This document shows, in pieces, positions 3,087 through 40,558 of a stretch of DNA of 64,000 bases. Each line of letters opens with the position of its first letter. Positions within the stretch are counted from its first letter, which is position 1. The stretch comes from Promethearchaeota archaeon (GTDB taxonomy: Archaea > Asgardarchaeota > Lokiarchaeia > Sigyniarchaeales > SOKP01). The position numbers and the translations under genes are program-made. The DNA lies in NCBI GenBank assembly GCA_048937405.1, contig JBHLNF010000003.1, forward strand, positions 160,001 to 224,000, in the 5' to 3' direction. Below the pieces are notes generated by a model. That model did not search any database. It worked only from the letters and a program-made list of their open reading frames with translations, and had not been told where the DNA came from.

Positions 3087-3612
3087 TTAATAATTTTTTA
3101 TCTTTTTATAATCTAATGATAATTCTCCTATTTTTGAATCATGAGGAAAATTTTTAATGTGAAATAGTAAAATAATTAAATTTCATTGTTATAAAATGAT
3201 ATCATTTAATAGTATCAACAAATGAGTTATCAAATAAGTTAATTATTAGATTTAATATATTTATACTTAAGTTTGCCAAATCACTTAATTTATAGCATAA
3301 TTGAATTATGATAATAATCATTGATGAGTTTATTATTGCTGTTCTTTCTGATAAAGTTGTCAAAAATGAGAGAACATCATATAATTAAATCTAAATATTC
3401 TTATATAAGAATTTTTACACATTAATATATTCTTCAAAATTAAAAAATCTTTATGATAACAAATTTAGAAAATTCTCCGAAATTCTAATTCATATAAGCA
3501 AATAGATATTATTAAAAATAAAAATGACTATATTTTATCACAGGGAATTTTACTATATTTAGTTACTAATAATTCTATTAAATCTATAGAAAGAGAGTTC
3601 TATTACTTTAAG

Positions 3613-3948
3613 ATGTTTTTGATGATTGGGGATATAAAATGTGAATTCAATGAGTCTATTGAAAAATTTAGGTTATTTTCAGAAAAATCCCTCATCGGTA
3701 CAATTATAATCCAGGATGGTATATTTAAGTATTTTGATGAATTAATAGCTGAAATTTTTGGTTGTACGCTAGAGGAAATGAAAAGTTGGGCTCCTCATAA
3801 ATGATTAAGATTTATTTTTCCTAAAGATAAGATCTTATAGCGGAACAAGCGTACAGAAAAAAATCGGTTGATTCAGATATTGTTAATCAGAATATTTAGT
3901 ATAGTACAGAAAGATGAAGGTATTAGATGACTTGATATTTTCTCAAAA
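3613..3948 (+). pseudogene. Decayed N-terminal PAS module of the downstream histidine kinase
   Basis: Translates as SEKSLIGTIIIQDGIFKYFDE...KSWAPHK*, then fragments (AEQAYRKK, IVQKDEGIR*LDIFSK) interrupted by stops and frameshifts; collinear with the intact first PAS module of 9428..11335. Confidence 0.8.
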
Positions 3949-6288
3949 ATGATAAGTTATGAAGTATGTCTCTCATATTTAGTAATAATTAATGATATTA
4001 GCTATAAGGTAAAAGGTGAGCAAAAAATAAAATCTTCTGAAGAAAAATATCTAAACATTCTCGAGAATATGATGGATGGATATTATGAAACAGATCTTGA
4101 CGGTAAATTGCTTTATGTGAATACTGCATTTTGTAAAATTTTAGGATATTCAAAAGAAGAATTGATAGGAAAGGATAATCAAACATTTTATGATAAACAT
4201 TCACGAGATATTTTGTACAATATATTCTCCCAAGTATATAAAACAAGAACTCCTCGTCCTCCCTCAGGATTAGTTAAATTGATGACACTTAAGAAGAAGC
4301 TTATTTATTTAGAAGGTACAGTTGATTTATTATACGATTCTGAAGGTAATAAGGCCGGATTTTATGGTGTTGTTCGTGATATCACACAAAGGAAAATTGC
4401 TGAGCAAAAATTGAAAGAATCTGAAGAAAAATTCAGAAATATCGCAGATAATTCAGTATTAGGGATAACTATGATACAAGATGGCATATATAAATATTTC
4501 AATAACAGAGTTAATGAAATTAGTGGCTACTCTGCAGAAGATATTAAAAGCTGGGCTCCTAATGAATTTGCTAAAACAATTTATCCTGAAGATCGAGAAT
4601 TTGTAATGACACAAGCACGTAAGAAACAAACAGATGATCCTAATGTTGTCAATCAATACTCACACCGAATAATAAGGAAAGATGGGGAGATCAGATGGCT
4701 TGAAATTCTCTCGAAAACTATAAATTATGAAGGACGTCCAGCAGATTTAGCAATGGTCATTGACATTACTGATAAAATAAAAGCTGAAAGGCAATTAAGA
4801 GATTCAGAGGAAAAATTTTCTAAAGCATTCAATTCAAATATTTTATCTATGAGTATATCATCCTTTGAAGATGGTAAATTCATTGAAGTAAATGATGCTT
4901 TTTTAAAGTTTTTAGGTCGTTCTAGAGAAGAAGTTATTGGTAAAACGACTGATGAGCTAGGCTTATGGGTCAATGAAAAAGTGCGGAAAAGATTTTTAAG
5001 AATTATTGATAAACATGGAAGTCTATTTAATATAGAAACCAAAGATATACCAAGAACAGGAGAACCTAAATATGGATTAGTCTCTTATATTAAAATCATC
5101 CTTAATGAGAAACCCTTTCTTCTTAGTATTCTAAATAACATAACTCCCAGGAAATTAGCTGAGCAGCAATTAAAAGAATCAGAAGAAAAATTTAGATATA
5201 TCGCAGATCATTCATTATTGGGGATAACTATCCTACAAGATGGAGTATTAAAATATTATAATAAAAAAGTTGCTGAAACTTTTGGAGTGTCAGAAGAAGA
5301 GATTAAAAATTGGGGTCCTGGAGAATCATTAAAACTTATACATCCTGATGATCGCGATATTGTAAGGCGACAAGCAATTAAAGTACAAAACGGTGAATTT
5401 GATGATGTATTGAACTATAAATATAGAATAGTAAAGAAGGATGGAAAAATTGGATGGCGTGAAACTTTCTCGAAATCAATAATTTATGAAGGTCACCCAG
5501 CAGCTTTTGGAATTCATATTGATATTACAGAAAAGATCGAAGCTGAAAAGAAGCTAAAAGAATCCAAGGAAAAATATCTTCGAGCATATAATCAGGCAGA
5601 ATTTTATAAAGACCTTTTTATCCATGATATAAATAATACTCTCCAAAGTCTATATTCCTCTATCCAATTAATCGATATGGGCCTTGATGGGATTAGAGAA
5701 AATAATGATACTAGAGAACTCATAGATATTATGGATAGGCAGATCAAAAGAGGGATAAAGTTAATTTCTAATGTTCGTAAATTATCTCAATTGGAAGATC
5801 ATAAGATTTCCATTGAGGAAGTTAATGTCTTTAAGGTTTTAAAGCGATCTATAGAATTTTTAAAGAATTCATTTCAAGATAGGAAAATTAAAATAAAATG
5901 TGATACAATTAATAAGAAGTCCTTATTACTTGGTAATGATTTGCTTCAAGATGTATTCGAGAATATTCTAATCAACTCAGTTAGGCATAATAAAAATGAT
6001 GTTGTAGAAATAATAATAAGAACTTCACAAGTAGATCAGGATGGTACGACCTACTGTAAACTTGAATTTATTGACAATGGCATCGGGATTGAGGATGAGC
6101 GAAAGGAAAGTGTATTAACTCGTGGAGATCCAAATTCTAAAACTACATATGGGATGGGATTGGGTTTATCTTTAGTCAAAAAAATTATCGAGACTTATGG
6201 TGGAAAAATCTGGATTGAAGATAAAGTTAAAGGTGACTATTCTAAGGGAACTAATGTCATTTTATTAGTACAAAAAGGTGGTTATTGA
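3949..6288 (+). CDS. Multi-PAS sensor histidine kinase (4 intact PAS + HisKA + HATPase)
   Basis: Repeated PAS/PAC units separated by LKESEEKF linkers; H-box FIHDINN, N-box ENILINSVRHN, G1 DNGIGI, G2 GMGLGL. Confidence 0.92.
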   Translation: MISYEVCLSYLVIINDISYKVKGEQKIKSSEEKYLNILENMMDGYYETDLDGKLLYVNTAFCKILGYSKEELIGKDNQTFYDKHSRDILYNIFSQVYKTRTPRPPSGLVKLMTLKKKLIYLEGTVDLLYDSEGNKAGFYGVVRDITQRKIAEQKLKESEEKFRNIADNSVLGITMIQDGIYKYFNNRVNEISGYSAEDIKSWAPNEFAKTIYPEDREFVMTQARKKQTDDPNVVNQYSHRIIRKDGEIRWLEILSKTINYEGRPADLAMVIDITDKIKAERQLRDSEEKFSKAFNSNILSMSISSFEDGKFIEVNDAFLKFLGRSREEVIGKTTDELGLWVNEKVRKRFLRIIDKHGSLFNIETKDIPRTGEPKYGLVSYIKIILNEKPFLLSILNNITPRKLAEQQLKESEEKFRYIADHSLLGITILQDGVLKYYNKKVAETFGVSEEEIKNWGPGESLKLIHPDDRDIVRRQAIKVQNGEFDDVLNYKYRIVKKDGKIGWRETFSKSIIYEGHPAAFGIHIDITEKIEAEKKLKESKEKYLRAYNQAEFYKDLFIHDINNTLQSLYSSIQLIDMGLDGIRENNDTRELIDIMDRQIKRGIKLISNVRKLSQLEDHKISIEEVNVFKVLKRSIEFLKNSFQDRKIKIKCDTINKKSLLLGNDLLQDVFENILINSVRHNKNDVVEIIIRTSQVDQDGTTYCKLEFIDNGIGIEDERKESVLTRGDPNSKTTYGMGLGLSLVKKIIETYGGKIWIEDKVKGDYSKGTNVILLVQKGGY

Positions 6289-12123: not shown

Positions 12124-12411
12124 TTCAACTATATTTGCAAATATTATGGTTATTAGAAAATTAAACTGAAAAACATTATATTTAGGTATAATATGAAATT
12201 GTACTATTTTAAAAACCAGAAATACTTAAAATAGACTTTCTTTTCAATAAAGAAAAAATCCCGTAGCATGATCAGAGAACTTAAAAATGAACTCGGTACG
12301 AATTTCATAAAAAAATAAATGTAAAGAATAAGATAATAAAAGATAAAAAAAATTAGAATTTGTAATTATAATTTATTATTTGTAAAATATCTGTATTTAT
12401 CAGTATGATCT

Positions 12412-14118
12412 TCATTTACAATATTTCCCTCTATATTCAAATTTAAACGCACTACCATCAGAACCTATCATATATATATCACCATCTTCATTAACCGTTA
12501 TAGCCGAAGTTGCATCCCAAATTAATGGATGATGGTAATATGTTGTATGTTCAAGTGGAAGATTTGATGCAATTATGCTAATGCATAAATTCTCCATATT
12601 TACTTTAATAAGTTTTCTCATAGACGTATCAACAATGAGTAGATTCCCTCTATAATCCCAAGCAAGACCCTTAGGTTTTCCTGTATATCCACTAAGAAAA
12701 ACTTCTTTAAATCCACTTTTTATATCGATCTTTGTAATTCGCCCAGCAAGTGTTTCAGCCACGTAAATAACTCCATCTTTAATGACTAAATCCACTGGTC
12801 CAGCCAAATTTTCAGCTATAACTATTTTTTCCCCAGATGTAAGGTTAATTCCTATAACTTGTCCTGCACCATACTCTGCTATATATAACATTAGATTTTC
12901 CTCATCTAATTCCATACCAGCGGGACTTGAAAGAGAGTAAGCAACATAGCTCCAATCCTCAGCGATGTTAGGATTGACATTTACCACAATACCATCTATA
13001 AAATCGGCCGTAAAAAGATAATCTCCTAATCCATTTGTCATAGTTATAGGTAGGTGATAACCAGTAGTTGATAACCAAGCATTAGCCCATGTCTTATAGA
13101 GATTACCTTCTTCATCCATCCTTCTTATCATTATAGAATCGCAAAGGTAAATATTTTCATCTTTCACTACAATACTGGCTGCGGAGTTTATTCCCATCGG
13201 GAAGAGCGTAGTATATTCACCACTATCGGTATCAACTTTCCAGATCGTGCAATCGTGATAACTGCTAACATAGAGATTACCATCTGGCCCAAATGCAAGA
13301 TTATCCAGCCCTGGAAGTAATGTTGCCACTGTTTCTATGTTCAAACCATCGGGACTAACTCTTTTAACGGCACCAGTAGCTAATTCTACTGTATAAATAT
13401 ATCCATCAGGACCAATCTTCAGTGCTATAGGTGTGATTATACCCGTAGTCGTAAGATTTGTAACAACACCAGTATCCATATCAACCTCAACAATCCTCCA
13501 TGTACCAAAATCAGGGACAACGAGCTTATTATCCCTAATATCAAATCCTTCTGGTACCGCTAAATCAGCTGTGACTAAAGTTGGTGGAAGTTCACCTTTG
13601 GGGTCTAATTCCCATACACGATTACCCCAAAAACATTCAGTCATAAATAAGCGTCCTGTTTTTTCATCATAGCTGATTCCATTAGGACCACTTAAACCAC
13701 GCGCTATTACTTTTTTCATCCCTTTTGAATCAATCTTATATACTTCTCCAGTTATTGCACTAGTAGCATAGAAATTTCCTTTATCATCGACAGTAATATC
13801 ATCAGGGCAATATACACCATGATAGGGACCTACAAAATTCTTTACAAGAGGAGATCTCCCCCACCTTAGGCTAATTTTAGAAATAGTGTTAGCACTAGTT
13901 TGACATACATAAAGAGCACCATCTTTGTCAAAAATGAGTCCATTGCATCCTCTTAATGGGGTAGATTCGATTAAAGTTAATTCTCTATACATTCTGTCCT
14001 CAACAATTATTCCTCTACGAGAGGATTTAGTTGATGATGAAAAGACGCTAGTGGAAATTATTACTAGACTTGATGTGACTATTGCTAATAATAAAATTAT
14101 TTTTATTTTTTTTTTCAA
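12412..14118 (-). CDS. Secreted or membrane-anchored double beta-propeller protein (SMP-30/gluconolactonase/NHL-like)
   Basis: N-terminal Lys-rich plus hydrophobic signal; repeated PNGI/PEGF/PDDI/LDNLAFGPDGNLYV blade motifs. Confidence 0.75.
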   Translation of the reverse strand: MKKKIKIILLLAIVTSSLVIISTSVFSSSTKSSRRGIIVEDRMYRELTLIESTPLRGCNGLIFDKDGALYVCQTSANTISKISLRWGRSPLVKNFVGPYHGVYCPDDITVDDKGNFYATSAITGEVYKIDSKGMKKVIARGLSGPNGISYDEKTGRLFMTECFWGNRVWELDPKGELPPTLVTADLAVPEGFDIRDNKLVVPDFGTWRIVEVDMDTGVVTNLTTTGIITPIALKIGPDGYIYTVELATGAVKRVSPDGLNIETVATLLPGLDNLAFGPDGNLYVSSYHDCTIWKVDTDSGEYTTLFPMGINSAASIVVKDENIYLCDSIMIRRMDEEGNLYKTWANAWLSTTGYHLPITMTNGLGDYLFTADFIDGIVVNVNPNIAEDWSYVAYSLSSPAGMELDEENLMLYIAEYGAGQVIGINLTSGEKIVIAENLAGPVDLVIKDGVIYVAETLAGRITKIDIKSGFKEVFLSGYTGKPKGLAWDYRGNLLIVDTSMRKLIKVNMENLCISIIASNLPLEHTTYYHHPLIWDATSAITVNEDGDIYMIGSDGSAFKFEYRGKYCK

Positions 14119-30513: not shown

Positions 30514-33087
30514 CTATTTTTGTACTTGAATCACTTCTGTTGATTCCTGTTCAGTTTTGAGATCTAATAGCTTTAATATTTCAATACCAAAAATGTTTGA
30601 TAAGATTTTATTCATCTCAGGTCCTCCCATATAACCTTGACATCCTAAATGAAGCTTATGAAAGTGCTCACCTAATTTAGTTTCAACCTCTTTTATGAAA
30701 TTAATAATTTTTTCTTCTAATAATTGGGATGGTGTTTCGTTTAATAAAAATACAACTTTAAATTCTCCATCTGTAAAGAACCCTCCCGATAAATAACCAT
30801 CTCTAAATTTAATAGATAATATTTCACCAACGTTCAATGCTTCTGCAGCAATATGATCCAATGCAGTAAGAAAACCAGATAATATTGTATTATCCACATC
30901 TTCTTTTGTGAAACTTAGCTCATACATGTTTTGACCACTTTCTCGATGCTGTATTAATAATTTTTCTATCATCTCAATATCTGGATCTATAATAAATGGC
31001 TTGATTAAGAAATTAACAATATCTTCACGAGTATTTCGCAATATTTTAAAAAGTTTTTTAGGTTTATTTCCATGTTGAGGTCCAGTTGGTTCTTCCCAGC
31101 TAGGATCATTTATCAATTGTGTGGCTGATCGACCAGTATTTCTCATAATTCCAACTTGTGCTCCAAATACTATAGCAGCATGGAATTCAAAAGCAGCAAT
31201 ACTCCCACCATTAATACCTATAAGTTTAATTCTACTTGGATCGATCCCTGATTTCATTATATCATACCAATATTGAATTGCTTCCATTACGCTAAAATCT
31301 TTTCCTTTTGTTTGATGAATTGTAGTGTATCTTCTATCAATTAAAACATCAGGAGGTAGTTTTTTTGGAATGTAACCAATTGATTTGATTTTTTCATTAT
31401 ATTCTTCCTGAATTTCTCCTACCATAGCACATATTCCCGCTTTAGTTCCCCCCGAGATAATTGTACCTTCGAAATCACTAAATGCTTCAGTAACACTATT
31501 TTTAATGAATTGTAGACTTCTTTCGATATTAACATCAGTTCCTCCTGCTATTATTACAATAGAATCATCAGAATATTTTTGTTTTTGTTTTAATTTAGAA
31601 TCTAAATATTTTATAGAATCTGTTATTAGTTTATCCGTTTTTTCCTTAATATTTGGATGAAAAATTATTCCTAGATGTAGAATTTGTTTTACTATGTCAA
31701 TTCCTTCTATTTGTCTTTCTTGAGATAATTTTAGTGTATTCAATGTATTAATAGTAGTTTCGACCATCCAAATATCGGGACTACATCGTATAGCTTTTAA
31801 GTAGTAATCTAAGGCATCTTTTATATTCCCTAATAATAGATTAAAGAGCCCTAGATCAAAGTATGCCCATGGTATATCAACCATTACTCTTGCCTGTGTT
31901 AATCTCCTTTCTATCCCTTTCTGAATCATTTCTCTATGTTTATCAATCTGAGTTATATCACCTGTTTGTTGAATTAATAATACTAAATAATTCCCTAAGG
32001 GATAAGGATCACCAGGATCAACTTTTAAAGCTTCCATATATGATTCTAATGCTTTATCATATAACTTTTGCTGTTTATACATACCTCCTAAAGAAGCCCA
32101 GGCATCAGAATTGAAAGGATTAATTTGAATTGATTGTTTTAAATAAGAACGTCCTTGGATAAATTCTTGACTCTCTGGCACTTTTTTATACTTTTTATGA
32201 TAAGAAACTCCAATATCTCGTAGTATTTCCGCTATTTCTGGATCTGAAGCTTTTTTAACACTCTCACTTTCAATAATTTCATTTAATATCTCTATACTTT
32301 TATCCATATCGTTTATAAACATTGCTAATTTTGCGATTCTATAACCCACTTGATAATTACTCTTGTCTGCTTCATAAACTAACATTAATCTGTCAATTTC
32401 AGATTTTATTTTTTCGTTGGACATATAAGCGCCATACACAGATTCGTAATGCTGCATTTTGTCAACTAACTCATTTAAAGCATTATCCTCGATTGATAAA
32501 AGTGATCTTACTCGAGTTAATTCTTGTTCATACAGCTTTGGAACTTCAAATTCATATTGGTTAAAAATTTTGTATTGATTTGCTGCCCAACCATGGCTAA
32601 TATATGTACCAATTTGAACTTCTGACTTGAAATTAAAAAATTTATCTTGTATATCCAAATTTAATCTATCATAGAGCTTCAAATCAGGATCAAGCTGAAT
32701 AGTATATATTTGGTAATGCTCTGGATATTGATTTTCTTTGATTTTTTTAAAACCATCACTAGTGCTACCAATACTAGTTAGAAAAATATCTCTTATAGCT
32801 TGAATGACAACATCCATCTCATTAACATTTGGTAAAATTATTCGAACTCCACATAAATCATTTATCTCTGCAATAGGATCAGAGTATTTTACATCAGGAT
32901 TCAATAATTTATTGGCAAAACTAGAAATTGTCTTTACTCTGTTTTGAATAATATATTCTGAAGAACACCCTTGTACTATATTCTCAAGAATTGTTTCTAT
33001 AACTTTAGAATACTCTTCATAAAGAGGACGTAATTCTTTATATCTATTAATTTGTTCTTCAAAAAACTTGCGTTGTTCTACTTCCAT
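30514..33087 (-). CDS. Multidomain protein: RelA/SpoT-like nucleotidyltransferase + TPR + SLOG-like + C-terminal longin-like domain
   Basis: RVKTISSFANK / DLCGVRI / EVQIGT..HGWA; TPR DAWASLGGMYK; IAGGT, IISGGTKAG, GINGG..AAFE, TGRSA; C-terminal SGQNMYELSF...ILSGFLTAL...E...I..IKF. Confidence 0.7.
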   Translation of the reverse strand: MEVEQRKFFEEQINRYKELRPLYEEYSKVIETILENIVQGCSSEYIIQNRVKTISSFANKLLNPDVKYSDPIAEINDLCGVRIILPNVNEMDVVIQAIRDIFLTSIGSTSDGFKKIKENQYPEHYQIYTIQLDPDLKLYDRLNLDIQDKFFNFKSEVQIGTYISHGWAANQYKIFNQYEFEVPKLYEQELTRVRSLLSIEDNALNELVDKMQHYESVYGAYMSNEKIKSEIDRLMLVYEADKSNYQVGYRIAKLAMFINDMDKSIEILNEIIESESVKKASDPEIAEILRDIGVSYHKKYKKVPESQEFIQGRSYLKQSIQINPFNSDAWASLGGMYKQQKLYDKALESYMEALKVDPGDPYPLGNYLVLLIQQTGDITQIDKHREMIQKGIERRLTQARVMVDIPWAYFDLGLFNLLLGNIKDALDYYLKAIRCSPDIWMVETTINTLNTLKLSQERQIEGIDIVKQILHLGIIFHPNIKEKTDKLITDSIKYLDSKLKQKQKYSDDSIVIIAGGTDVNIERSLQFIKNSVTEAFSDFEGTIISGGTKAGICAMVGEIQEEYNEKIKSIGYIPKKLPPDVLIDRRYTTIHQTKGKDFSVMEAIQYWYDIMKSGIDPSRIKLIGINGGSIAAFEFHAAIVFGAQVGIMRNTGRSATQLINDPSWEEPTGPQHGNKPKKLFKILRNTREDIVNFLIKPFIIDPDIEMIEKLLIQHRESGQNMYELSFTKEDVDNTILSGFLTALDHIAAEALNVGEILSIKFRDGYLSGGFFTDGEFKVVFLLNETPSQLLEEKIINFIKEVETKLGEHFHKLHLGCQGYMGGPEMNKILSNIFGIEILKLLDLKTEQESTEVIQVQK

Positions 33088-33455
33088 AGTTCTTTTTTCA
33101 CTTAAACTTTTTATTAGTCATTATTTTTCATGAATTTCTTCTCTTAGTATTATTGATAAATCCTATTATTTAAAATTAACTTAAGATTGTTAATTAAAAT
33201 TATTATAATAAATGAAAAAATAATTCTCATAAATTCTTTTTTTATTTTTTAATATTAAAATTTAAAGATATTTGAACGAGAAGTAATATTTAAAATTATT
33301 ATAGTCATTTAATTTCATAATTTCAAAGCTAATTTCTTGTTTTAATTAATTTTTTAAGTAAACATCTGGAAAAGACTTATAATATATTACAGAAGCTTTT
33401 TTGTTTTCTATTTTTCTTGGTTAAATTGAAATTATAAAGAAGTGGTGATAAAAAA

Positions 33456-33623
33456 ATTCCAGAATTAATTTGCGATAGCTGTGGTTCTAGAAAAGACGTG
33501 CCTACCTGCTGTGATAAATCAATGATTGTAAAAGATGGATTTTTGCTTTGTTGCTGTTCTAAGGAGTGTGGATATCAACCAATTCCAGAATGTTGTGGAA
33601 AGAAAATGACTTATAAAAATTAA
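33456..33623 (+). CDS. Unannotated 55-aa Cys-rich protein with two desulforedoxin/zinc-ribbon-like repeats; probable ATT start
   Basis: IPELICDSCGSRKDVPTCCDKSMIVKDGFLLCCCSKECGYQPIPECCGKKMTYKN*; 10 Cys; GGTGAT SD at 33444-33449; GC-richer than its flanks. Confidence 0.75.
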   Translation: MPELICDSCGSRKDVPTCCDKSMIVKDGFLLCCCSKECGYQPIPECCGKKMTYKN

Positions 33624-33753
33624 TTATTCTTAAATTTTCATCTTAAAATTTGTTTATATAATTGCCCAATAAATATATTAAAATTATCTTTTGCAAAAAT
33701 AATTAGCAATAAGAAAAAGTAAAGAAAAAATGGATAAAAAAACGAAAATTGTA

Positions 33754-35334
33754 TTACCATAAAAGATTGGCAATAATACTTTTAGCAAAATCCGCTTGTT
33801 TTTTATTCAATACCTTTTGAATTCTCAAATCATTAATTGAATCCTCAAGTCGTGTATCCAGATTTTTCATTTCCATAAGATTATTTTTATCCCCTTGAGA
33901 TTCAACTAATTCAATCATCGCATTGTCTTTATTCATCAAATCTCTTAATCTTTGTCTAAAGCTTATTTTAACCTTAGTACTTACAATTTTTCCTTTATCA
34001 ATCAGTACTGGTAGTACAGGAGCTCTTTCCGTGCTTCGATTTGTATTAGGATCAACGAAATAAAATATACATATTGGAATTCCTACTATAACATTATTAG
34101 TCTTTAACTCAAGAGTATAATTATTTAAAAAATTTTGAACATTAGTCATTTCAGTATCTACAATGGATACGATATTGTCTAGACAAGATTGTTTCTCATT
34201 TTTTATTCTCGCAATCACATCTTCGGTAGAACTTAAATCACTGGAAAGTTCACTATGTTTTGTTTCTATTTCTTTTTCTACTTCAGATTTTTTGCGTTCC
34301 AATTCTCTTATTCTTTGTTGTTTTGATTTTTCTAGATCGCTAAGTTCTTTTTGTACATTTCTCTTTAACTGATTAATTTCAGTTTGATATCGAGAGATTG
34401 AATTTCCAAGATCTTGATATTTTAAATTTATATCTTTTAAAGCTTCTTCTACCAAAAATAAATCTCGTTGATTAATCGCATTTTTCATACTATCAACACT
34501 CTGCTTAAGTCTACTGATATCATTGTTTAGTTCTCCAGTTTTGTCATTTATTTTGTATTTACCAATTTTTACTAGTTCATCTGGAGATCCCTCAATTTCA
34601 CGTTGCATTTCTTTCTGTATTTCTTTATTAAGTATTGTAAGTTGCTTTTCTTCATCACTAGTATCTACCTTTGTATCTTTTATTTTATCAACTTGCTTAC
34701 CTCCCCTTTCAATCCATTTATCACATAACTTTATAATGGCATCTTCATAAGTCTCAAGCATACTAGCATCTTTTTGAGTCACAAAATCTAAAATTTCTGG
34801 TGCTATTTTTGTTTGATTCACACTTTTGGCTATAGCAGCACCTTCCAGCAGAAAATATGGCGTTGTATGAGCCCCTAAATCATATTGGTTTAAGAAAAAG
34901 TTTTGAAAATAACCAACCTCATTAGCATTAAATAGTGCCTCTTGAATTACAGTCCCACGTTTAAAATTCTTTGTTCTTTTTAAATACGTATTGTTATAAG
35001 ATTGTAATGAATTTAAGAAAGATGTGGGATCTGCTCCTTTTATCACATTTTCTGGTCTTGGTGGCATTTGAGCAAATTTCCCAACACTAAGTTTTTCTTG
35101 TTTATTCATAAGATAACTACAAACACAAGCTCTCGTATCACTTAGAGGAATTAACCGAACTGGCCAAAAAGCCGTTGAAATTTTTGCTAATTTCCCTAAT
35201 TTTTGAAGTTTCTTACCATATATCCCAATTAATTCAATCATACCCATTGCTAATTCATTTAATAAAGCAGCTTGGCTTCTTGCGGGAATTATTTCACCCA
35301 TATTAATTAAATAAGGAATTACTTTATTAACCAT
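33754..35334 (-). CDS. Hypothetical protein with a long central coiled coil
   Basis: Heptad-rich E/K/Q/L segment (about aa 200-400) flanked by globular N- and C-terminal regions (FWPVRLIP; VGIPICIFYF). Confidence 0.7.
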   Translation of the reverse strand: MVNKVIPYLINMGEIIPARSQAALLNELAMGMIELIGIYGKKLQKLGKLAKISTAFWPVRLIPLSDTRACVCSYLMNKQEKLSVGKFAQMPPRPENVIKGADPTSFLNSLQSYNNTYLKRTKNFKRGTVIQEALFNANEVGYFQNFFLNQYDLGAHTTPYFLLEGAAIAKSVNQTKIAPEILDFVTQKDASMLETYEDAIIKLCDKWIERGGKQVDKIKDTKVDTSDEEKQLTILNKEIQKEMQREIEGSPDELVKIGKYKINDKTGELNNDISRLKQSVDSMKNAINQRDLFLVEEALKDINLKYQDLGNSISRYQTEINQLKRNVQKELSDLEKSKQQRIRELERKKSEVEKEIETKHSELSSDLSSTEDVIARIKNEKQSCLDNIVSIVDTEMTNVQNFLNNYTLELKTNNVIVGIPICIFYFVDPNTNRSTERAPVLPVLIDKGKIVSTKVKISFRQRLRDLMNKDNAMIELVESQGDKNNLMEMKNLDTRLEDSINDLRIQKVLNKKQADFAKSIIANLLW

Positions 35335-35641
35335 AATATTTCACTTAAACTTTCTATATTATTTTTTAATATCGATAGAATAATTAAAGTTTTGGTTTTA
35401 ATTCTATTTAATTGCAAAATATTCAAAAAAAAAGAAGATTTTTAGAGTTTTTTATCTATTATTCTGGATTTTAAGAGATTTACTGATCCTGGTCATGAAA
35501 TTCTGAAAATTAATGAAAACTAAATTGAAAATATTCAATTCTTTTTGCATTGAAGTTGGTGATTCAAGAGCCTATCTTAATATACAATATTATTAAAAGC
35601 TTGAATGAAAATAAGAAAAAAGAGGATTAATATCAAAGAAA

Positions 35642-38600
35642 TTATCTAATAATTTCCTCATGTAGTTTTTCGATAAATCCATCAAAATCTTCTTTAGTGA
35701 ATTTCACATTCAACAGTGGTGTAAGTAAGAAAGGAATTAATTCTTCAGTCTCATATACTGGAACTATTTTCATCAATCCTTTTTTCCTCATCTGAAATGC
35801 TGCTTGCCATTCATCTTCTACTGCTCTAGATTTGACTGAATGTTGAGAGCAAAAAAATACAAAGACTTTTGTCATTTTTAAAGTTCTTTCCATATAAGAC
35901 ACAATGTTTTCTCCACTGTCTTCTTCCCAAAAGAAAACTTTATCGACTTTTGGATATGTTTCTAATCGTTTCGCGATTTCTTTAATATTAAAATGTTTTG
36001 AATCAAGTGTTGAATAACTTAAAAACACATTTAATTCTTGAGTAAAGTAGCTTCTAATATTGTTGATAAATAATGGATAAGAAGACAATTGTTCAGAGGT
36101 TATAATACCTTGATTAATTCCTTTTTTGAAAATACTAAGGTTCATTAAATTAGTTTCAACCATGTCCTTATTTGGGAAAATCGTGGAGAATATTTGGTTC
36201 CAATTTTCATTATTAGTAATTATTGAACTACTATCGGATAAATCTATTGCATCCATAGGTTCTATTTGTGCTTTTAACTTGCTTGGCTTTATAGTTTGCA
36301 TTTTAATATCTAATGTTGATCTTATATATTCCGGAATTCCAACACCCCACCATTCAGATTCATAGTTGCTTTGCAATTTTAATTTAATAAAACTTTTTAG
36401 GTTAGATTCGAAATTTTCAATATCCTTTATAGCTATTTCTAATTGTTTTTTATGAGTAGATCTTTTGTTAATTTTTGGTTTGAGAATTAAATATATACTA
36501 ATGATACTAATAAGAGCTACAACTCCAACAATAATCAATATTATTTCAAATGCCGTTAATCCATCACCTCCATCTCCAGATGATTCCCCACTTATTTCTA
36601 GTATAAAATAGTCATAATTATCTCCCTCACCATTTTCTTTTAATTCTCCATATCTGGAACCGTAAGTTTCATTAATTAAATTATTAGGATCTATAATTAA
36701 TTCGATTACTACATCTCCCCCTGTTGAATCAATACTACTACTTGTGAATATATGGGAAAATGTCTTATTCACTCCTAAATATTCTATTGGGGTATCTGAA
36801 TTATTATATAAAATATCCCCCGTATATTCAACCCTAATTATAATTTCAATATTATTTGCTTCCCAAATACCATTATTAATGATTGTAAAATTTAATACAA
36901 ATGACTTACCTATTTCTGCAGTGCTCGCATGAAAATTTACAACTGCTAAATTGGGCATTGGATACCAGAAGCGAATCAATGGTTCAGTCCCTAATTTTAC
37001 TTCAATTCCATCAAGAAAAGTGTCTCCATCACTATCGTTGTTTTTAGGATCTGTTTGATGTTTAAATTCATCTATATTTAAAAGTTGATCATTGTCCGAA
37101 TCTGTTAAATTATCATTACCATTGAGTGGTTCCAAACCATTGAGAACTTCCCATAGATCTTCCATATTATCAAAATCGGTGTCTTTATTCCATGGATTGG
37201 TTAAATTAAGCGCTTCCCAATAATCATTTAACCCATCACCATCAGAATCTGGATTGGTAACATTAGTTCGATATGTATCACTACCTGGTATATATTCTTC
37301 ATAATTATATAACCTGTCTCCGTCAGTATCCTCATAGGTTGGATAAATTAGAGGATTTGAATCAAAAACCCGAGTAGTTCCATCAATTAAAAATGGAATA
37401 TCTCCAATTCCATCCTCTGGATTTAGATCTTCCCCCTTATACTCATCCCAATAATTACCTGCATAACCATCATCCCAAGTATTATTAACGCCACTGTCTT
37501 CAGCATCCACCTCATTATTGATAAAATTATTATAACAAATTTTATTATCTTCTAGATATAAAGATTCTTCTATAAGAATACCAAATTCTTTATTATCGGT
37601 AATCCTATTATTTTGAATAGTATTATTCTTATTAGCATTTTTTTCTTCAAAATATATTCCAAATCTCTCATTGCCTTTTATTGTATTATTACTAATTATA
37701 TTATTGTCGGAATAATTTAAAATATAAAGTCCATATCCTCCACCTAATTCAAGAAACGATAAAGGTTTATTTGTAATTTTATTAAAATTAAATGAATTGT
37801 TAAAGAAGATATTATTAGAACTATCTTGCAAATATAATCCAGCATCATTGTTGTTAAGCTCGTTAAATGAAAAATGACTATTATTAGTTGATACTAAAAC
37901 CAAACCTAATTGATTATTATTTATAATACAGTTTGAAAAATTACACTCTTTAGATAAAAACGATACTATTCCAAAAAAATAATTATCTGTTAAATTAATC
38001 CTTTCAAAGAGAGTATTACTACAATTAAAAAGAAATAATCCTAATGATACATTAAAGAGATCTAAGTCTGATATATAGGAATTTTCTGAATTAACTAAAT
38101 AAACTTGACTTGCGTTTGTAAAATCAGAAGGACCTAAATTCGATTCATTATAATAATAATAAAATCTTTTATCATTTACCGTATTTGTATCATCTATATC
38201 AAACGTATCTTCCTGGATGGCATTAGATACTAAGGTAATTCCACCCCCTTTAAATTCATTACCACTAAGCTTTGTATGATCAACAACACCTTCCTCAGGA
38301 AAAACTAAAATAGAACTTCCTATATTATTGATACCTGAATTATTTGTTATAATAGTAGTGTCAACATTATTTGATAATAATAAACCAATAAGATTATTCT
38401 TAAAGAAACATTGTGAAATAGTACTATTATCGCTTTCACAAACGATTATACCACTTCTACAATTACTAAAATTATTTTTTAAAATAGAGTTATTATGACA
38501 ATAAAAATTTAGGAGTAATCCTTCCTCACTATTAAAAGAAGCACTATTGTTAGTAATTATATTATTAGAACAATTATATAATGTAATTCCGACTGTAGCA

Positions 38601-40558
38601 TGAGTAATATTTGTATTTGATATAATTGAATTATTACAATTTATTAAAATTATTTGTCCGGCATTTTTTATTAGATTAGTATCTTTTACTTGTTCATTCC
38701 AGCGGTAGATCAGTGGTTTTGCATTTACTTCATTATCAGTAATATTATATGAAATATTATTAAAAGAAAGAGAGGGTAAATAATCCTCTTCCTTAAAATT
38801 TATGTATAATCCACAATAAGTTAGTTGATTTTCCAAAATTGTAACATTAAAAACATTAAATAAATAAATACCACTTTTTCCATTATACTTCCCCTTATTC
38901 TTGGTAAGGTTATTATAATTACTCCATTCCAGAAAAATTCCATTACCATAGTCAGCCGAAGATTCCAAATCTTGATGAGCAGTATTATTATTCATTGTAT
39001 TATTTAAGATTAAATTATATTCACTACCACCACTCAAACGTATACCATTAGAATTGAATGTGGCAATATTTTCAGAAATATTATTATTATTGCTCTCAAC
39101 AAGATGTAATCCCTCTAAAGTATTATTAATTAATGTATTTTCTAAAATAGTATTATTCTCACAATTTTCCAATAAAATACCTGTCATAGCATGGTCATAC
39201 GAGCGTAAATCTTTATTGTTACATTTCACTCTATTTTTTGTAATATTATTGTTGAAACATTCTCTAAGATGAATTCCAACTTCATTATATGAGACATTAT
39301 TCTCTATAATTTTACTGAAAGTAGTTGATCTTATTTTAATCCCAAAGAAATTACTATTATTAATTTCATTAGAATCGATTGTTATATTATAACAATAAGT
39401 TAAATCAATCCCATATTCTCTATTATTATTTAACGTATTGTTTCTAATTGTGATATTTTCACAAAAATGTAAGCTAACTCCTATCGAAGAAGAAGAAATG
39501 TTAAAATCAGAGATTAATGAATCATTACATCCTGCTAATATAATTTGTCCTGGAGGTTCTGGAGGTCCAGTTTGTGTAAAATCTTGGTTATTAAGATTGC
39601 TTTCGTTAAAATAATAATACACAGATTTCCCATTTACTGTATTACTTGTATCAATATTATAATCAAAATAAAAAAGAGAATTACCATTGAAACTTAGACC
39701 ACAATCTACCATTTGATTAGCTGCTAAGGTATTATTTGTAGATTCAAAAAAATACATTCCTCTCGTATTGTTCACAAGACGATTCTGACTAATATTGTTA
39801 TGATTACAATTTGCTTGAAATGAGATTCCTAAATTCCCATTATAAGAAAGATTATTTTCTTTTATAATATTCATTGTACAGAAATCTTTAGCCCAAATCC
39901 CTGATTGACCATTATTTTCAATAGTATTATTAAATATAATATTATTTTCACATAAAGTTTCTAATTCAAATCCACGGTGAAAATTATGATGAATTTGATT
40001 ATCTGAAAAATTGTTATAAGAACTACTACCATTTATCCTTATTCCAACTTCATTACCGAATATTTTATTTTTTTGAATTATATTGTTTTCACTTTTATTT
40101 AGCCATATACCATATTTTTGATTACTAAAAAATGTACTATTAATTATTTTACCATTAGTAACATTATTAAACATCAATCCAAAATACATTTCGCTGGATC
40201 CAAATAAGGTACAATTATTAATCACAAAATAATCCTCTGAATTTTCTATAAGGATGCAAAAACCTGAAGCTCCGGCATTAATTGTAACATTTTCAATTAA
40301 ATGAGGATCTGCTAAATCTCCGGTTCTATTCTGGATCCAATCAAGATCCGCGTCAGACCAATTATCATTTGCGATATGAATTGGAGGGCAATTTGGCCAA
40401 AAATCTGCTGTTTTTAACTTAGAATCATTATTAGTGGATTCAAAATTCTTTTCTGCTGTAAAATAGTTCCAAAAATCCCCCCTAAGAAATGAATAACTGG
40501 AGAATATAAATACAAGTATTAATAAAACTTCAATTTTTTTTTTTTTTTCTTGAATCAT
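35642..40558 (-). CDS. Membrane receptor-like protein: signal anchor, NosD/CASH beta-helix ectodomain, Ca-binding DxDxDG repeats, CARDB/Ig-like, TM helix, Swt1/HEPN-like domain, C-terminal TIR
   Basis: GIxL..s.nN.I..N repeats; DTDGDRL, DSDGDGLNDYWE, DSDGDTFLDGIE; PNLAVV...IINNG...IIDPNNLINE; TM FEIILIIVGVVALISIISIYLIL then KPK; IENFESNLKSFI...EWWGVGIP...ENWNQIF; TIR NVFLSYS...FFWEED...FVFFCS..SVKSRAVEDEWQAA...IVPV. Confidence 0.8.
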   Translation of the reverse strand: MIQEKKKKIEVLLILVFIFSSYSFLRGDFWNYFTAEKNFESTNNDSKLKTADFWPNCPPIHIANDNWSDADLDWIQNRTGDLADPHLIENVTINAGASGFCILIENSEDYFVINNCTLFGSSEMYFGLMFNNVTNGKIINSTFFSNQKYGIWLNKSENNIIQKNKIFGNEVGIRINGSSSYNNFSDNQIHHNFHRGFELETLCENNIIFNNTIENNGQSGIWAKDFCTMNIIKENNLSYNGNLGISFQANCNHNNISQNRLVNNTRGMYFFESTNNTLAANQMVDCGLSFNGNSLFYFDYNIDTSNTVNGKSVYYYFNESNLNNQDFTQTGPPEPPGQIILAGCNDSLISDFNISSSSIGVSLHFCENITIRNNTLNNNREYGIDLTYCYNITIDSNEINNSNFFGIKIRSTTFSKIIENNVSYNEVGIHLRECFNNNITKNRVKCNNKDLRSYDHAMTGILLENCENNTILENTLINNTLEGLHLVESNNNNISENIATFNSNGIRLSGGSEYNLILNNTMNNNTAHQDLESSADYGNGIFLEWSNYNNLTKNKGKYNGKSGIYLFNVFNVTILENQLTYCGLYINFKEEDYLPSLSFNNISYNITDNEVNAKPLIYRWNEQVKDTNLIKNAGQIILINCNNSIISNTNITHATVGITLYNCSNNIITNNSASFNSEEGLLLNFYCHNNSILKNNFSNCRSGIIVCESDNSTISQCFFKNNLIGLLLSNNVDTTIITNNSGINNIGSSILVFPEEGVVDHTKLSGNEFKGGGITLVSNAIQEDTFDIDDTNTVNDKRFYYYYNESNLGPSDFTNASQVYLVNSENSYISDLDLFNVSLGLFLFNCSNTLFERINLTDNYFFGIVSFLSKECNFSNCIINNNQLGLVLVSTNNSHFSFNELNNNDAGLYLQDSSNNIFFNNSFNFNKITNKPLSFLELGGGYGLYILNYSDNNIISNNTIKGNERFGIYFEEKNANKNNTIQNNRITDNKEFGILIEESLYLEDNKICYNNFINNEVDAEDSGVNNTWDDGYAGNYWDEYKGEDLNPEDGIGDIPFLIDGTTRVFDSNPLIYPTYEDTDGDRLYNYEEYIPGSDTYRTNVTNPDSDGDGLNDYWEALNLTNPWNKDTDFDNMEDLWEVLNGLEPLNGNDNLTDSDNDQLLNIDEFKHQTDPKNNDSDGDTFLDGIEVKLGTEPLIRFWYPMPNLAVVNFHASTAEIGKSFVLNFTIINNGIWEANNIEIIIRVEYTGDILYNNSDTPIEYLGVNKTFSHIFTSSSIDSTGGDVVIELIIDPNNLINETYGSRYGELKENGEGDNYDYFILEISGESSGDGGDGLTAFEIILIIVGVVALISIISIYLILKPKINKRSTHKKQLEIAIKDIENFESNLKSFIKLKLQSNYESEWWGVGIPEYIRSTLDIKMQTIKPSKLKAQIEPMDAIDLSDSSSIITNNENWNQIFSTIFPNKDMVETNLMNLSIFKKGINQGIITSEQLSSYPLFINNIRSYFTQELNVFLSYSTLDSKHFNIKEIAKRLETYPKVDKVFFWEEDSGENIVSYMERTLKMTKVFVFFCSQHSVKSRAVEDEWQAAFQMRKKGLMKIVPVYETEELIPFLLTPLLNVKFTKEDFDGFIEKLHEEIIR

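Follow-up and report, generated by a model that had tools for sequence, protein, structure and literature searches.

A TIR receptor gene and a RelA/SpoT-SLOG gene in an Asgard archaeon look like a relative of the bacterial Thoeris immune pathway

Introduction

[quoted passage not shown] The SLOG families were reportedly defined by Burroughs et al. 2015 (NAR). In type III Thoeris several TIR genes may accompany one SLOG gene (2025 Thoeris survey preprint), and in Thoeris-type effectors the fusion of a sensor with an effector is the rule (2025 Thoeris survey preprint; Yirmiya et al. preprint).

Here we describe a locus of a Lokiarchaeial genome in which the gene of a TIR receptor (P1) is located close to the gene of a SLOG protein (P3). 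All coordinates refer to the window, which is the whole stretch of 64,000 nucleotides that was analysed. Judged from the encoded domains, the P1/P3 pairing looks like a relative of the bacterial Thoeris immune pathway. As in Thoeris, a TIR domain that has its catalytic Glu accompanies a SLOG protein, a putative nucleotide reader, and in P3 the SLOG sensor domain is fused to output domains (RelA/SpoT, longin). The presence of several TIR genes beside one SLOG gene resembles type III Thoeris. There are also clear differences. The output domain of P3 is RelA/SpoT-like instead of SIR2, and Pfam and NCBIfam gave no SIR2 match in P3; its SLOG domain is of the TRPM/LSDAT type and not of the ThsA type; a TPR array and a longin/roadblock domain are added; and the TIR proteins carry large sensors, including ectodomains. 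Furthermore, TIR and SLOG genes form tight operons in a paralogue class and in other phyla, whereas P1 and P3 do not share an operon in the window.

In the literature searched (SLOG/RelA/TIR, toxSAS/TIR/Thoeris and Asgard/TIR) we found no published description of a pairing of TIR with RelA/SpoT-SLOG; Burroughs et al. 2015 (NAR) lay outside this coverage, and an earlier mention there is possible. The 2025 Thoeris survey preprint and four of its supplementary files mention none of RelA, SpoT, PF04607, LSDAT and PF18171.

Results

Gene order of the locus

The analysed part of the window contains four genes: P1, P2, a Cys-rich mini-gene and P3. The ORF listing gave P1 (1638 aa, 35642..40558), P2 (526 aa, 33754..35334) and P3 (857 aa, 30514..33087) on the minus strand, with gaps of 307 bp between P1 and P2 (35335-35641) and of 666 bp between P2 and P3 (33088-33753). 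The second gap harbours the mini-gene as an ORF on the plus strand. Gene order, orientation, gap sizes and the tiny Cys-rich gene on the opposite strand were recovered as described in the original prediction. P1 and P3 are located 2.6 kb apart with P2 and the antisense mini-gene between them, and co-transcription of P1 and P3 is unlikely because of the size of the two gaps. The earlier statement that these genes do not form a tight operon is correct for the window. All public runs listed as containing the stretch are sediment metagenome DNA, with no RNA run among them. PADLOC assigned no known defence system to P1, P2 and P3 and reported candidate models only (PDC-M34B and PDC-S33).

P2 and the mini-gene are core genes between two variable slots. 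The coiled-coil protein P2 is conserved in 61 Promethearchaeota genomes with 63-90% identity and a length of always about 526 aa, and its gene is part of a conserved block in the order NAD kinase, methyltransferase, P2 and aminotransferase. At 48 of these 61 loci no P1-like TIR gene or P3 is found nearby. A paralogue of P2 was not found within the host genome, and P2 has no Pfam family; the matches from Pfam, NCBIfam and PADLOC were coiled-coil noise only, and an Atlas feature search returned solely 'hypothetical protein' clusters from several archaeal phyla. The AF2 model of P2, built with 21 orthologues, has a mean pLDDT of 54 and is confident only in the central coiled coil. The mini-gene (33456..33623, plus strand, convergent with P2) encodes about 55 aa with 10 Cys and recurs at almost every P2 locus with 65-88% identity, regardless of whether TIR and P3 are present. 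The listed ORF (33498-33623) begins with a GTG, and the conserved frame extends back to about 33456; since no ATG, GTG or TTG is present upstream of the first CxxC in this clade, the start is probably the ATT at 33456. In orthologous loci, too, the TIR gene and P3 are separated by the antisense mini-gene and hence do not make up one operon. The three-gene module of the original prediction was rejected, because P2 and the mini-gene are unrelated housekeeping neighbours, present in 61 genomes and mostly without TIR or P3 nearby.

The TIR receptor P1

From its sequence P1 is predicted to be a TLR-like, single-pass surface receptor of the type-I membrane topology with a glycosylated ectodomain and an inner, C-terminal TIR domain. 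This agrees with its earlier description as a transmembrane TIR receptor with a beta-helix. P1 is the 'type A' TIR gene upstream of P2, with Pfam matches to NosD, Beta_helix, TSP3_bac and TIR_2 and one internal TM helix. The ectodomain (residues about 26-1338, 36545..40483) consists of right-handed beta-helix repeats (NosD and Beta_helix, E 1e-69 and 6e-64, Pfam), TSP3-type Ca-binding repeats and a CARDB-like end (Pfam/NCBIfam). It contains 61 N-x-S/T sequons versus 32 expected by composition and 24 Cys residues, and the cytoplasmic tail has one of each. The TM helix (residues 1339-1357, 36488..36544) has a hydropathy of 3.08 over 19 residues and is directly followed by the Lys/Arg-rich stretch KPKINKRSTHKK.

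The juxtamembrane region (36137..36433) is HEPN-like. It matches HEPN_Swt1 with an E-value of 0.0027 and 18.4 bits, which is below the Pfam cut-off of 27.5, and PADLOC PDC-M34B with an E-value of 7e-7. The possibility of an active HEPN RNase was rejected: the Rx4-6H motif is absent, the corresponding position reads FKKGINQ, and an alignment of the seven receptors with this domain revealed no conserved Arg or His. We regard the domain as dead.

The TIR domain (residues 1511-1632, 35663..36028) was identified by TIR_2 with 56 bits versus a cut-off of 28 (E 6e-15, Pfam). In an alignment the Glu in the motif VEDEW falls on the catalytic-Glu motif of Cat1, and it is invariant in 17 TIRs (P1 and 16 partner TIRs). 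As this enzymatic Glu is kept, the TIR domain of P1 probably functions as an enzyme and not as an adaptor. In architecture P1 resembles the animal Toll-like receptors, with a signal anchor, a large, predicted glycosylated ectodomain, one TM helix and a cytoplasmic TIR domain, but the ectodomain is composed of beta-helix and TSP3 repeats instead of LRRs, and a HEPN-like domain precedes the TIR domain. We regard P1 as an architectural analogue only and claim no homology beyond the TIR domain.

Orthologues of P1 with a homologous juxtamembrane and TIR cassette are located upstream of P2 at four further loci, including L018, and a receptor with the P1-type cassette directly adjoins a P3 homologue at locus L080 from another genus, with no P2 between. 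The host genome encodes five more, dispersed TIR receptors, which share 55-66% identity with P1 in the TIR domain. These paralogues are as similar to the TIR domain of P1 as are the TIRs that precede P3 in relatives, and the idea of a TIR subfamily unique to the P3 neighbourhood was rejected. With five such paralogues present, nothing singles out P1 as the partner of P3.

The SLOG protein P3

P3 is a cytosolic protein with no predicted TM helix. Pfam searches and fold comparison indicated a RelA/SpoT-like nucleotidyltransferase, a TPR array, a SLOG domain and a longin/roadblock domain. The original prediction of a SLOG-containing fusion was right with respect to the SLOG fold and missed the RelA/SpoT domain at the N-terminus and the longin/roadblock domain at the C-terminus. 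In the host genome P3 is the sole match to both RelA_SpoT and LSDAT_prok. The protein is under purifying selection, with a dN/dS of about 0.1 (0.07-0.21 in every domain), and its distribution is patchy (33 of 160 genomes of the class).

The RelA/SpoT-like domain (residues 50-169, 32581..32940, minus strand) matches PF04607 with 42 bits versus a cut-off of 27 (E 1e-10) and PADLOC PDC-S33 with an E-value of 7e-11. The ATP/Mg motifs RxKxxxSxxxK and DxxGxR and the catalytic ExQ are kept; the corresponding residues R50, K52, S56, K60, D77, G80, R82, E156 and Q158 are conserved in 37-42 of 42 homologues. The acceptor motif GYxSxH is absent, with QYPEHYQIY in this region, and it is missing across the whole orthologue class. 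In addition, ExQxRT reads EVQIGT; this exchange of QIRT for QIGT (R160G) is confined to P0003-P0005. Canonical (p)ppGpp synthesis by P3 is doubtful because of the missing GYxSxH and the R160G exchange, and as judged from these motifs the catalytic output of the domain is uncertain. P3 shares the single RelA/SpoT synthetase fold and the ATP/Mg motifs with the small alarmone synthetases and toxSAS enzymes (RelP/RelQ, CapRel-type, PADLOC PDC-S33). It differs from them by the lack of GYxSxH in its orthologue class, the R160G exchange in its clade, the fusion to TPR, SLOG and longin domains and a locus with no antitoxin-like neighbour. Distant members of the P3 family have fully canonical RelA/SpoT motifs. 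The TPR array follows at residues about 230-440 (31768..32400; TPR_1/2/8, TPR-S and matches to TPR proteins in the PDB).

The SLOG domain of the TRPM/LSDAT type (residues about 497-700, 30988..31599) was assigned by an AF2 model, Foldseek, VIA-align and motifs. LSDAT_prok (PF18171) matched residues 514-661 with 24.1 bits, just under the cut-off of 25.4, when the protein was used alone, and with 30.1 bits once the neighbouring in-frame matches were added; most homologues carry a precomputed match. The model of the domain has a pLDDT of 86. The top 50 Foldseek matches were all MHR1/2 regions of TRPM channels, including TRPM2 with ADP-ribose (E 1e-6). Using VIA-align, the model superposed on TM1055 (Z 17.8), TRPM2 (Z 14.8-15.8), LOG phosphoribohydrolases (Z 13-14) and the SLOG domain of BcThsA with 3'cADPR (Z 11.4), the last being a point of likeness to Thoeris at the level of the model. 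The motifs AGGTD, SGGTKxG and GINGGxIxxxE are conserved family-wide, with P0042 as the only departure, and they are intact even in members with a dead RelA/SpoT site. Modelling therefore confirmed a Rossmann-like SLOG fold with Gly-rich loops predicted to bind a nucleotide. The predicted likeness to MHR1/2 of TRPM2, the ADP-ribose-binding LSDAT SLOG domain of eukaryotes, is on the fold level; the sequence identity is only 12-16%, and P3 is a soluble protein and no channel.

The C-terminal domain (residues about 702-837, 30577..30984; residues 233-368 of the model) superposes on the solved longin/roadblock core with the order beta-beta-alpha-beta-beta-beta-alpha. The VIA-align matches were a TRAPP subunit (Z 11.0), Roadblock3 from Prometheoarchaeum (Z 11.0) and MglB (Z 10.8).

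A TIR gene relic upstream of P3

A tblastn search detected a relic of 18 codons (33641..33694, minus strand) with the translation ...DNFNIFIGQLYKQILR*, which corresponds to the final helix of the TIR proteins encoded ahead of P3 in relatives. It shows 61-67% identity to residues 806-826 of the TIR proteins at the loci L005 and L007; the E-value against the whole window is 0.05-0.12, and place and strand are exactly as expected. At the same position longer relics of 51 aa and 79 aa are present at the loci L018 and L002, respectively. These matches show that the TIR gene normally located just upstream of P3 was deleted here and left the relic behind, a loss that the original prediction missed. 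As P3 is intact and the purifying selection persists after this loss, P3 does not strictly depend on that TIR partner.

Recurrence of the pairing

Of 29 Promethearchaeial loci, about 23 have a TIR or TIR-like gene next to the relative of P3, although such counts overstate the support because relatives are not independent samples. Within Promethearchaeia we observed nine arrangements in which a RelA/SpoT-TPR-SLOG gene has a TIR or TIR-like neighbour, tight TPR-TIR operons included. At eight loci a TIR_2 gene is located directly upstream of the P3 orthologue; these TIR proteins vary between forms with four TM helices (686-836 aa) and receptors (979-1900 aa). At six loci of distant relatives, L080 among them, P3 homologues have TIR or TIR-like (DUF4062) genes as flanking neighbours. 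A paralogue class of 669 aa with the domains RelA/SpoT-TPR-S-SLOG is found 32-63 bp downstream of TPR-TIR_2 or DUF4062-STAND genes in all seven informative loci. Counted over whole genomes, G027 (3.8 Mb) has two TIR_2 genes in all, one of them 454 bp from P3, in G091 three of four TIR_2 genes stand in tandem directly upstream of P3, and in G093 five of eight are found in the interval that precedes P3. Beyond Promethearchaeia a TIR gene was found within 500 bp of a P3 homologue in 14 of 58 loci and within 3 kb in 25 of 58. The TIR calls there were made with a custom HMM, and a Pfam check of ten flagged ORFs identified nine as TIR_2. The pairing reaches many bacterial and other archaeal phyla, with tight operons there too.

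Synteny across relatives supports the TIR–P3 part of the original prediction; P2 and the mini-gene occur mostly away from this pair. The caveat that the adjacency may be due to chance does not hold for the family-level link, given the nine arrangements and the distant phyla. A profile search of the host genome (4.47 Mb) gave 13 TIR_2 matches and one SLOG/RelA_SpoT gene, so that P3, if placed at random, would have a TIR gene within about 2.6 kb in roughly 1.5% of cases. Taken together, we consider a functional link between the TIR and the RelA/SpoT-SLOG gene families very probable.

Discussion

The strongest alternative is adjacency without coupling. P1 would then be a self-contained receptor with its TIR domain as an NAD+-depleting effector in the style of SARM1 or Avs-TIR, P3 would be a separate stress enzyme with a SLOG domain that senses an endogenous metabolite, and both would gather in the variable slot beside P2. 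The intervening genes and wide gaps between P1 and P3, the TIR receptors scattered through the host genome and the constraint on P3 after the loss of its adjacent TIR gene fit such a view, as do six Promethearchaeial P3-family loci with no TIR neighbour; moreover, bacterial STAND-TIR and TPR-TIR proteins are able to act on their own (Yirmiya et al. preprint). We nevertheless consider it unlikely in the light of the recurring arrangements with their tight operons, the pairing in distant phyla, the position of one of only two TIR genes in G027, and locus L017, the nearest relative by P2, where P1 is absent and P3 has decayed to an internal-deletion pseudogene.

Coupling of another kind is quite improbable. 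RelA/SpoT could make an alarmone signal with TIR as the NAD+-destroying effector, or the TPR array of P3 could bind TIR proteins with no diffusible messenger. TIR domains serve as the effectors of CBASS, Pycsar and Avs systems (Yirmiya et al. preprint), the TPR array is long and many partners are TPR-TIR proteins, and genes for HD_4 alarmone hydrolases and NUDIX proteins occur near some P3 homologues. However, it is on the TIR partners that the variable sensors reside (ectodomains, MalT-like TPR, STAND/NACHT-WD40), which are the usual mark of an upstream component. No alarmone-binding domain is recognisable in these partners, whereas P3 possesses a fold dedicated to sensing nucleotides, and some members combine a dead RelA/SpoT site with a perfect SLOG domain. 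Just as improbable is a SLOG domain that acts as a LOG-like hydrolase and processes or removes the TIR product or an alarmone, in which case P3 would be an enzyme that shapes or clears the signal. The LOG-family protein TM1055 is the top structural match, and GINGGxIxxxE resembles PGGxGTxxE, the motif of LOG enzymes, but the Pfam match is LSDAT_prok, a prokaryotic family related to the SLOG of TRPM channels, MHR1/2 of TRPM2 and the SLOG domain of ThsA bind their ligand without catalysis, and fused sensors and effectors are the norm in Thoeris-type effectors.

The reading that we favour, and regard as probable, is a Thoeris-like pathway of P1 and P3 in which TIR signalling would gate a RelA/SpoT protein via its SLOG domain. 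A cue at the cell surface would cluster P1 or one of the five paralogous TIR receptors, and the TIR domain would cleave NAD+ to ADP-ribose or to a cyclic or conjugated ADPR derivative. Binding of this product to the SLOG domain of P3 would switch the output, which may be pyrophosphoryl transfer by RelA/SpoT (an alarmone or a toxSAS-like reaction with a non-canonical acceptor) and/or the longin platform, and the end result would be growth arrest or a stress programme. Whether the TIR and SLOG genes are linked through a nucleotide that the TIR makes and the SLOG domain reads is an evenly balanced proposition, and the chances that P1 itself feeds P3 in the host genome are likewise even. P1 and P3 probably represent a degenerate version of a two-gene signalling or immune pairing that is widespread. 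The window is in this respect a natural experiment, with the adjacent TIR gene deleted, P3 still under selection and a paralogous receptor one gene further. The tight operons of the paralogue class and of bacteria are directly clonable two-gene test cases.

A far-reaching and rather doubtful extension would be a Lokiarchaeial Toll-like pathway, in which six paralogous, glycosylated receptors with enzymatic TIR domains produce an NAD+-derived messenger for one TRPM2-type SLOG reader, which drives an alarmone-type nucleotidyltransferase and a longin/roadblock platform regulating GTPases. Such a pathway might be a prokaryotic forerunner that links TIR, ADPR/TRPM-type sensing and eukaryote-like control of small GTPases.

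If the favoured reading is true, Thoeris-type TIR signalling would gain an output of the RelA/SpoT family, leading from NAD+-derived immune messengers to alarmone or translation control. Asgard archaea would put an enzymatic TIR domain behind large surface ectodomains, as animal Toll-like receptors do, and a TRPM-channel-type SLOG domain in a TIR context would bear on the origin of eukaryotic ADPR sensing.

Gene arrangement and the P1 receptor

The source genome of the window (4.47 Mb, G+C about 29%) is Promethearchaeial (Lokiarchaeial, Asgard). Its open reading frames confirmed the gene order of the original prediction: three consecutive genes on the minus strand, P1 (35642-40558, 1638 aa), P2 (33754-35334, 526 aa) and P3 (30514-33087, 857 aa), are separated by 307 bp and 666 bp, and a conserved Cys-rich frame lies on the plus strand within the second gap (33456-33623).

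By its sequence, P1 appears to be a type-I membrane receptor. Behind an N-terminal hydrophobic anchor, Pfam and NCBIfam models identify an ectodomain of about 1300 residues, a NosD-type right-handed beta-helix with TSP3 repeats. A single strong transmembrane helix (residues 1339-1357) is followed by a Lys/Arg-rich stretch, and the tail of 280 residues carries a TIR_2 domain at its end (56 bits versus a cut-off of 28). The ectodomain contains 24 Cys residues and 61 N-x-S/T sequons, compared with 32 expected from composition, and the tail one of each; this distribution is consistent with an extracellular and glycosylated ectodomain. The juxtamembrane region shows a weak likeness to a Swt1-type HEPN domain, and the Rx4-6H motif is absent from it and from six other aligned receptors with the same domain. 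The TIR active site is conserved: the catalytic Glu is kept in P1 and is invariant in an alignment of 17 TIRs adjoining P3-family genes.

Five more TIR proteins are dispersed over the same genome (contigs C7, C9, C13, C17 and C28). Their TIR domains are 55-66% identical to that of P1 and their open frames span 491-1575 aa, the four largest resembling P1 in frame length. No SLOG gene was found near any of the five, and P1 and these receptors with similar TIR domains face a single SLOG/RelA-SpoT gene, P3. A NAD kinase gene is located 1 kb upstream of P1 (41639-42763, plus strand). Because it is a member of a conserved housekeeping block that is also present in genomes without TIR and P3 genes, its closeness to a TIR gene with predicted NAD+-consuming activity is probably a coincidence.

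P2 and the Cys-rich mini-gene

The original prediction had joined P1, P2 and P3 in one candidate signalling or immune module. This grouping is wrong, since P2 is a core gene. Homologues of P2 (63-90% identity, always about 526 aa) were found in 61 Promethearchaeota genomes within a housekeeping block of NAD kinase, methyltransferase, P2 and aminotransferase genes, and 48 of these loci have neither a P1-like TIR gene nor P3 nearby. The protein is a single-copy coiled-coil protein with a mean column identity of 81% across 21 genomes and no paralogue in the genome of the window. Pfam and cluster searches found no family assignment, the AF2 model fails beyond the coiled coil, and proteins similar by features are present in Bathyarchaeota and Thermoproteota. 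P2 is a widespread archaeal protein of unassigned function.

The Cys-rich mini-gene is convergent with P2 and present, at 65-88% identity, at almost every P2 locus of Promethearchaeota; its product of about 55 aa comprises two CxxC...CC units. Because no ATG, GTG or TTG precedes the first CxxC in the clade of the window (KKIPEL versus KKMS.. elsewhere), the start codon there is likely ATT. As both genes are conserved across P2 loci, mostly without TIR or P3, both belong to the core, and variable slots flank them on either side. TIR receptor genes occupy a slot upstream of P2 as well as one that separates it from the Cys gene, and P3 fills the slot beyond the latter. The P1 lineage sits upstream of P2 in four loci of relatives (L018, L021, L028, L042), whose genomes all hold P3.

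Pairing of TIR and P3-family genes

Synteny across Asgard genomes supports the predicted linkage of TIR and SLOG genes. A TIR or TIR-like neighbor was found in about 23 of 29 informative Promethearchaeial P3-family loci, in nine arrangements; this count and those below include kin, are not made up of independent cases and overstate the support. In eight loci (L003, L005-L008, L039, L077, L078) a TIR_2 gene precedes a P3 orthologue (60-83% identity), encoding either a 4-TM protein (686-836 aa) or a single-pass receptor (979-1900 aa); L078 has three such genes in tandem. In another genus (L080, P3 46% identical) a receptor with the P1-type cassette is convergent with P3 at a distance of 424 bp, with no P2 between them. 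P3 homologues also lie beside a divergent beta-propeller-TIR receptor (L013), adjoin DUF4062 (TIR-like) STAND/TPR proteins (L012, L016) or stand two genes from a TIR gene (L015). Genes of a 669-aa paralogue class with RelA/SpoT, TPR-S and SLOG and no longin follow a MalT-like TPR-TIR_2 or DUF4062-STAND gene at a distance of 32-63 bp in all seven informative loci. In L011 (2340-7054) the P3 homologue has a divergent TIR_2 gene beside it, and after this TIR gene come ThiF (E1), Prok-JAB and UFC1-like (E2) genes, a set that recalls the Cap2/Cap3 accessory genes reported for some CBASS and Thoeris operons.

The strongest rival explanation is that TIR and P3 genes are adjacent without coupling. No TIR neighbor was found in L009, L010, L014, L091, L092 and L094. 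Genome-wide counts show that the adjacency is unlikely by chance: one of two TIR_2 genes in the 3.8 Mb of genome G027 lies 454 bp from P3, three of four in G091 lie directly upstream of it, and five of eight in G093 fall within the interval before it. Plain inherited synteny is argued against by the variety of architectures and orientations.

Other genes were also observed at these loci. L009 (6284-6946) and L010 (6108-6770) have nearby a 220-aa metallo-beta-lactamase-fold gene with a weak match to Anti-Pycsar Apyc1; its product may hydrolyse a nucleotide signal, or the gene may be there through synteny alone. NUDIX genes (L012, L014, L016) and the alarmone-hydrolase domain HD_4, a separate gene in L015 and fused to the P3-family protein in L081, are candidates for removal of a signal or product.

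Using the P3-family alignment, relatives outside Promethearchaeia were found in Chloroflexota, Gemmatimonadota, Planctomycetota, Acidobacteriota and Bacteroidota, in Bathyarchaeia, Methanobacteria and Thermoplasmatota among the archaea, and in other groups. A custom HMM placed a TIR gene within 500 bp in 14 of 58 such loci and within 3 kb in 25. Pfam was run on ten of the flagged ORFs and identified TIR_2 in nine, as fusions with NACHT, TPR, HEAT or Clp_N domains.

A partly eroded pair in the window

By sequence, the TIR gene expected before P3 is gone from the window. In the interval from the stop codon of P2 to the Cys gene, a relic of 18 codons (33641-33694, minus strand) matches the last helix of the TIR proteins preceding P3 in relatives, with the stop at the same position. 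Relics at the same spot measure 51 aa in L018 (a 90-93% relative) and 79 aa in L002. P3 itself is intact and under selection, with dN/dS of 0.07-0.21 in every domain, a range that includes the comparison with L001, from the same genome as the 51-aa relic. The window holds a partly eroded instance of the pair.

L017 ranks closest to the window when relatives are compared by P2; it lacks P1, and an internal deletion has left its P3 a pseudogene (12153-12871; residues 1-146 and 755-856 left); in L023 only the P3 C-terminus remains beside P2 (11575-11967). Neither of these close relatives has a TIR gene adjoining P2. In L008 (565-5540) the TIR gene (565-2565, 2370-2693) and the P3 orthologue (2818-4668, 4533-5540) are both split into overlapping frames, which may reflect joint decay or faulty assembly; downstream lie P2 and a receptor of SBP_bac_5-beta-helix-TIR architecture.

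Domain structure of P3

Hydropathy analysis found no transmembrane helix in P3. Pfam identifies a RelA/SpoT domain (residues 50-169), a TPR array and, below threshold, an LSDAT_prok SLOG domain (residues 514-661). Residues 470-857 were modelled with AF2 from an alignment of 24 homologues (pLDDT 86). The best 50 PDB matches in Foldseek were all MHR1/2 domains of TRPM channels, including TRPM2 with ADP-ribose (E 1e-6). In an all-against-all structural search the SLOG model matched TM1055 (Z 17.8), TRPM2 (Z 15.8), LOG and DprA proteins (Z 12-15) and the SLOG domain of BcThsA with 3'cADPR (Z 11.4). Residues 702-837 matched longin/roadblock folds (TRAPP subunit and Prometheoarchaeum Roadblock3, both Z 11.0; MglB, Z 10.8). 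The SLOG pocket is conserved, its Gly-rich motifs being kept throughout the family with P0042 as the sole departure.

The RelA/SpoT domain has the ATP/Mg motifs. GYxSxH is absent from the entire orthologue class, and QIRT is altered in the clade of the window (R160G); the motifs are canonical in more distant family members. In the homologues P0032 and P0033 the site is dead, with E156K and loss of DxxGxR, and P0036 carries E156K and has lost most of DxxGxR; the SLOG motifs are kept in all three. Members with a dead site retain an intact SLOG-longin part, which points to a further output of P3 besides the enzyme.

A possible TIR-to-SLOG mechanism

Comparative support for the TIR-to-SLOG idea is good. 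By analogy with Thoeris and TRPM2, sensor-bearing TIR proteins would cleave NAD+ once triggered, an ADPR-type product would bind the SLOG domain of P3, and binding would switch on its output. That output could lie in the longin platform, in a RelA/SpoT reaction with a non-canonical acceptor, or in both. Two further rivals to this scheme are a reverse or direct coupling of TIR and P3, and a catalytic role of the SLOG domain.

A pairing of TIR with RelA/SpoT-SLOG was not found in the searchable literature, the 2015 SLOG-family paper lying outside the search, nor in a survey from 2025 that covers 29 types of Thoeris effector, with its searched supplements; the searchable literature likewise yielded no account of Asgard membrane TIR receptors. 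Among known systems, Thoeris of type I or type III is nearest. The window pair, having neither a SIR2 domain nor an operon, is not a member in the narrow sense, but its working principle may be that of Thoeris.
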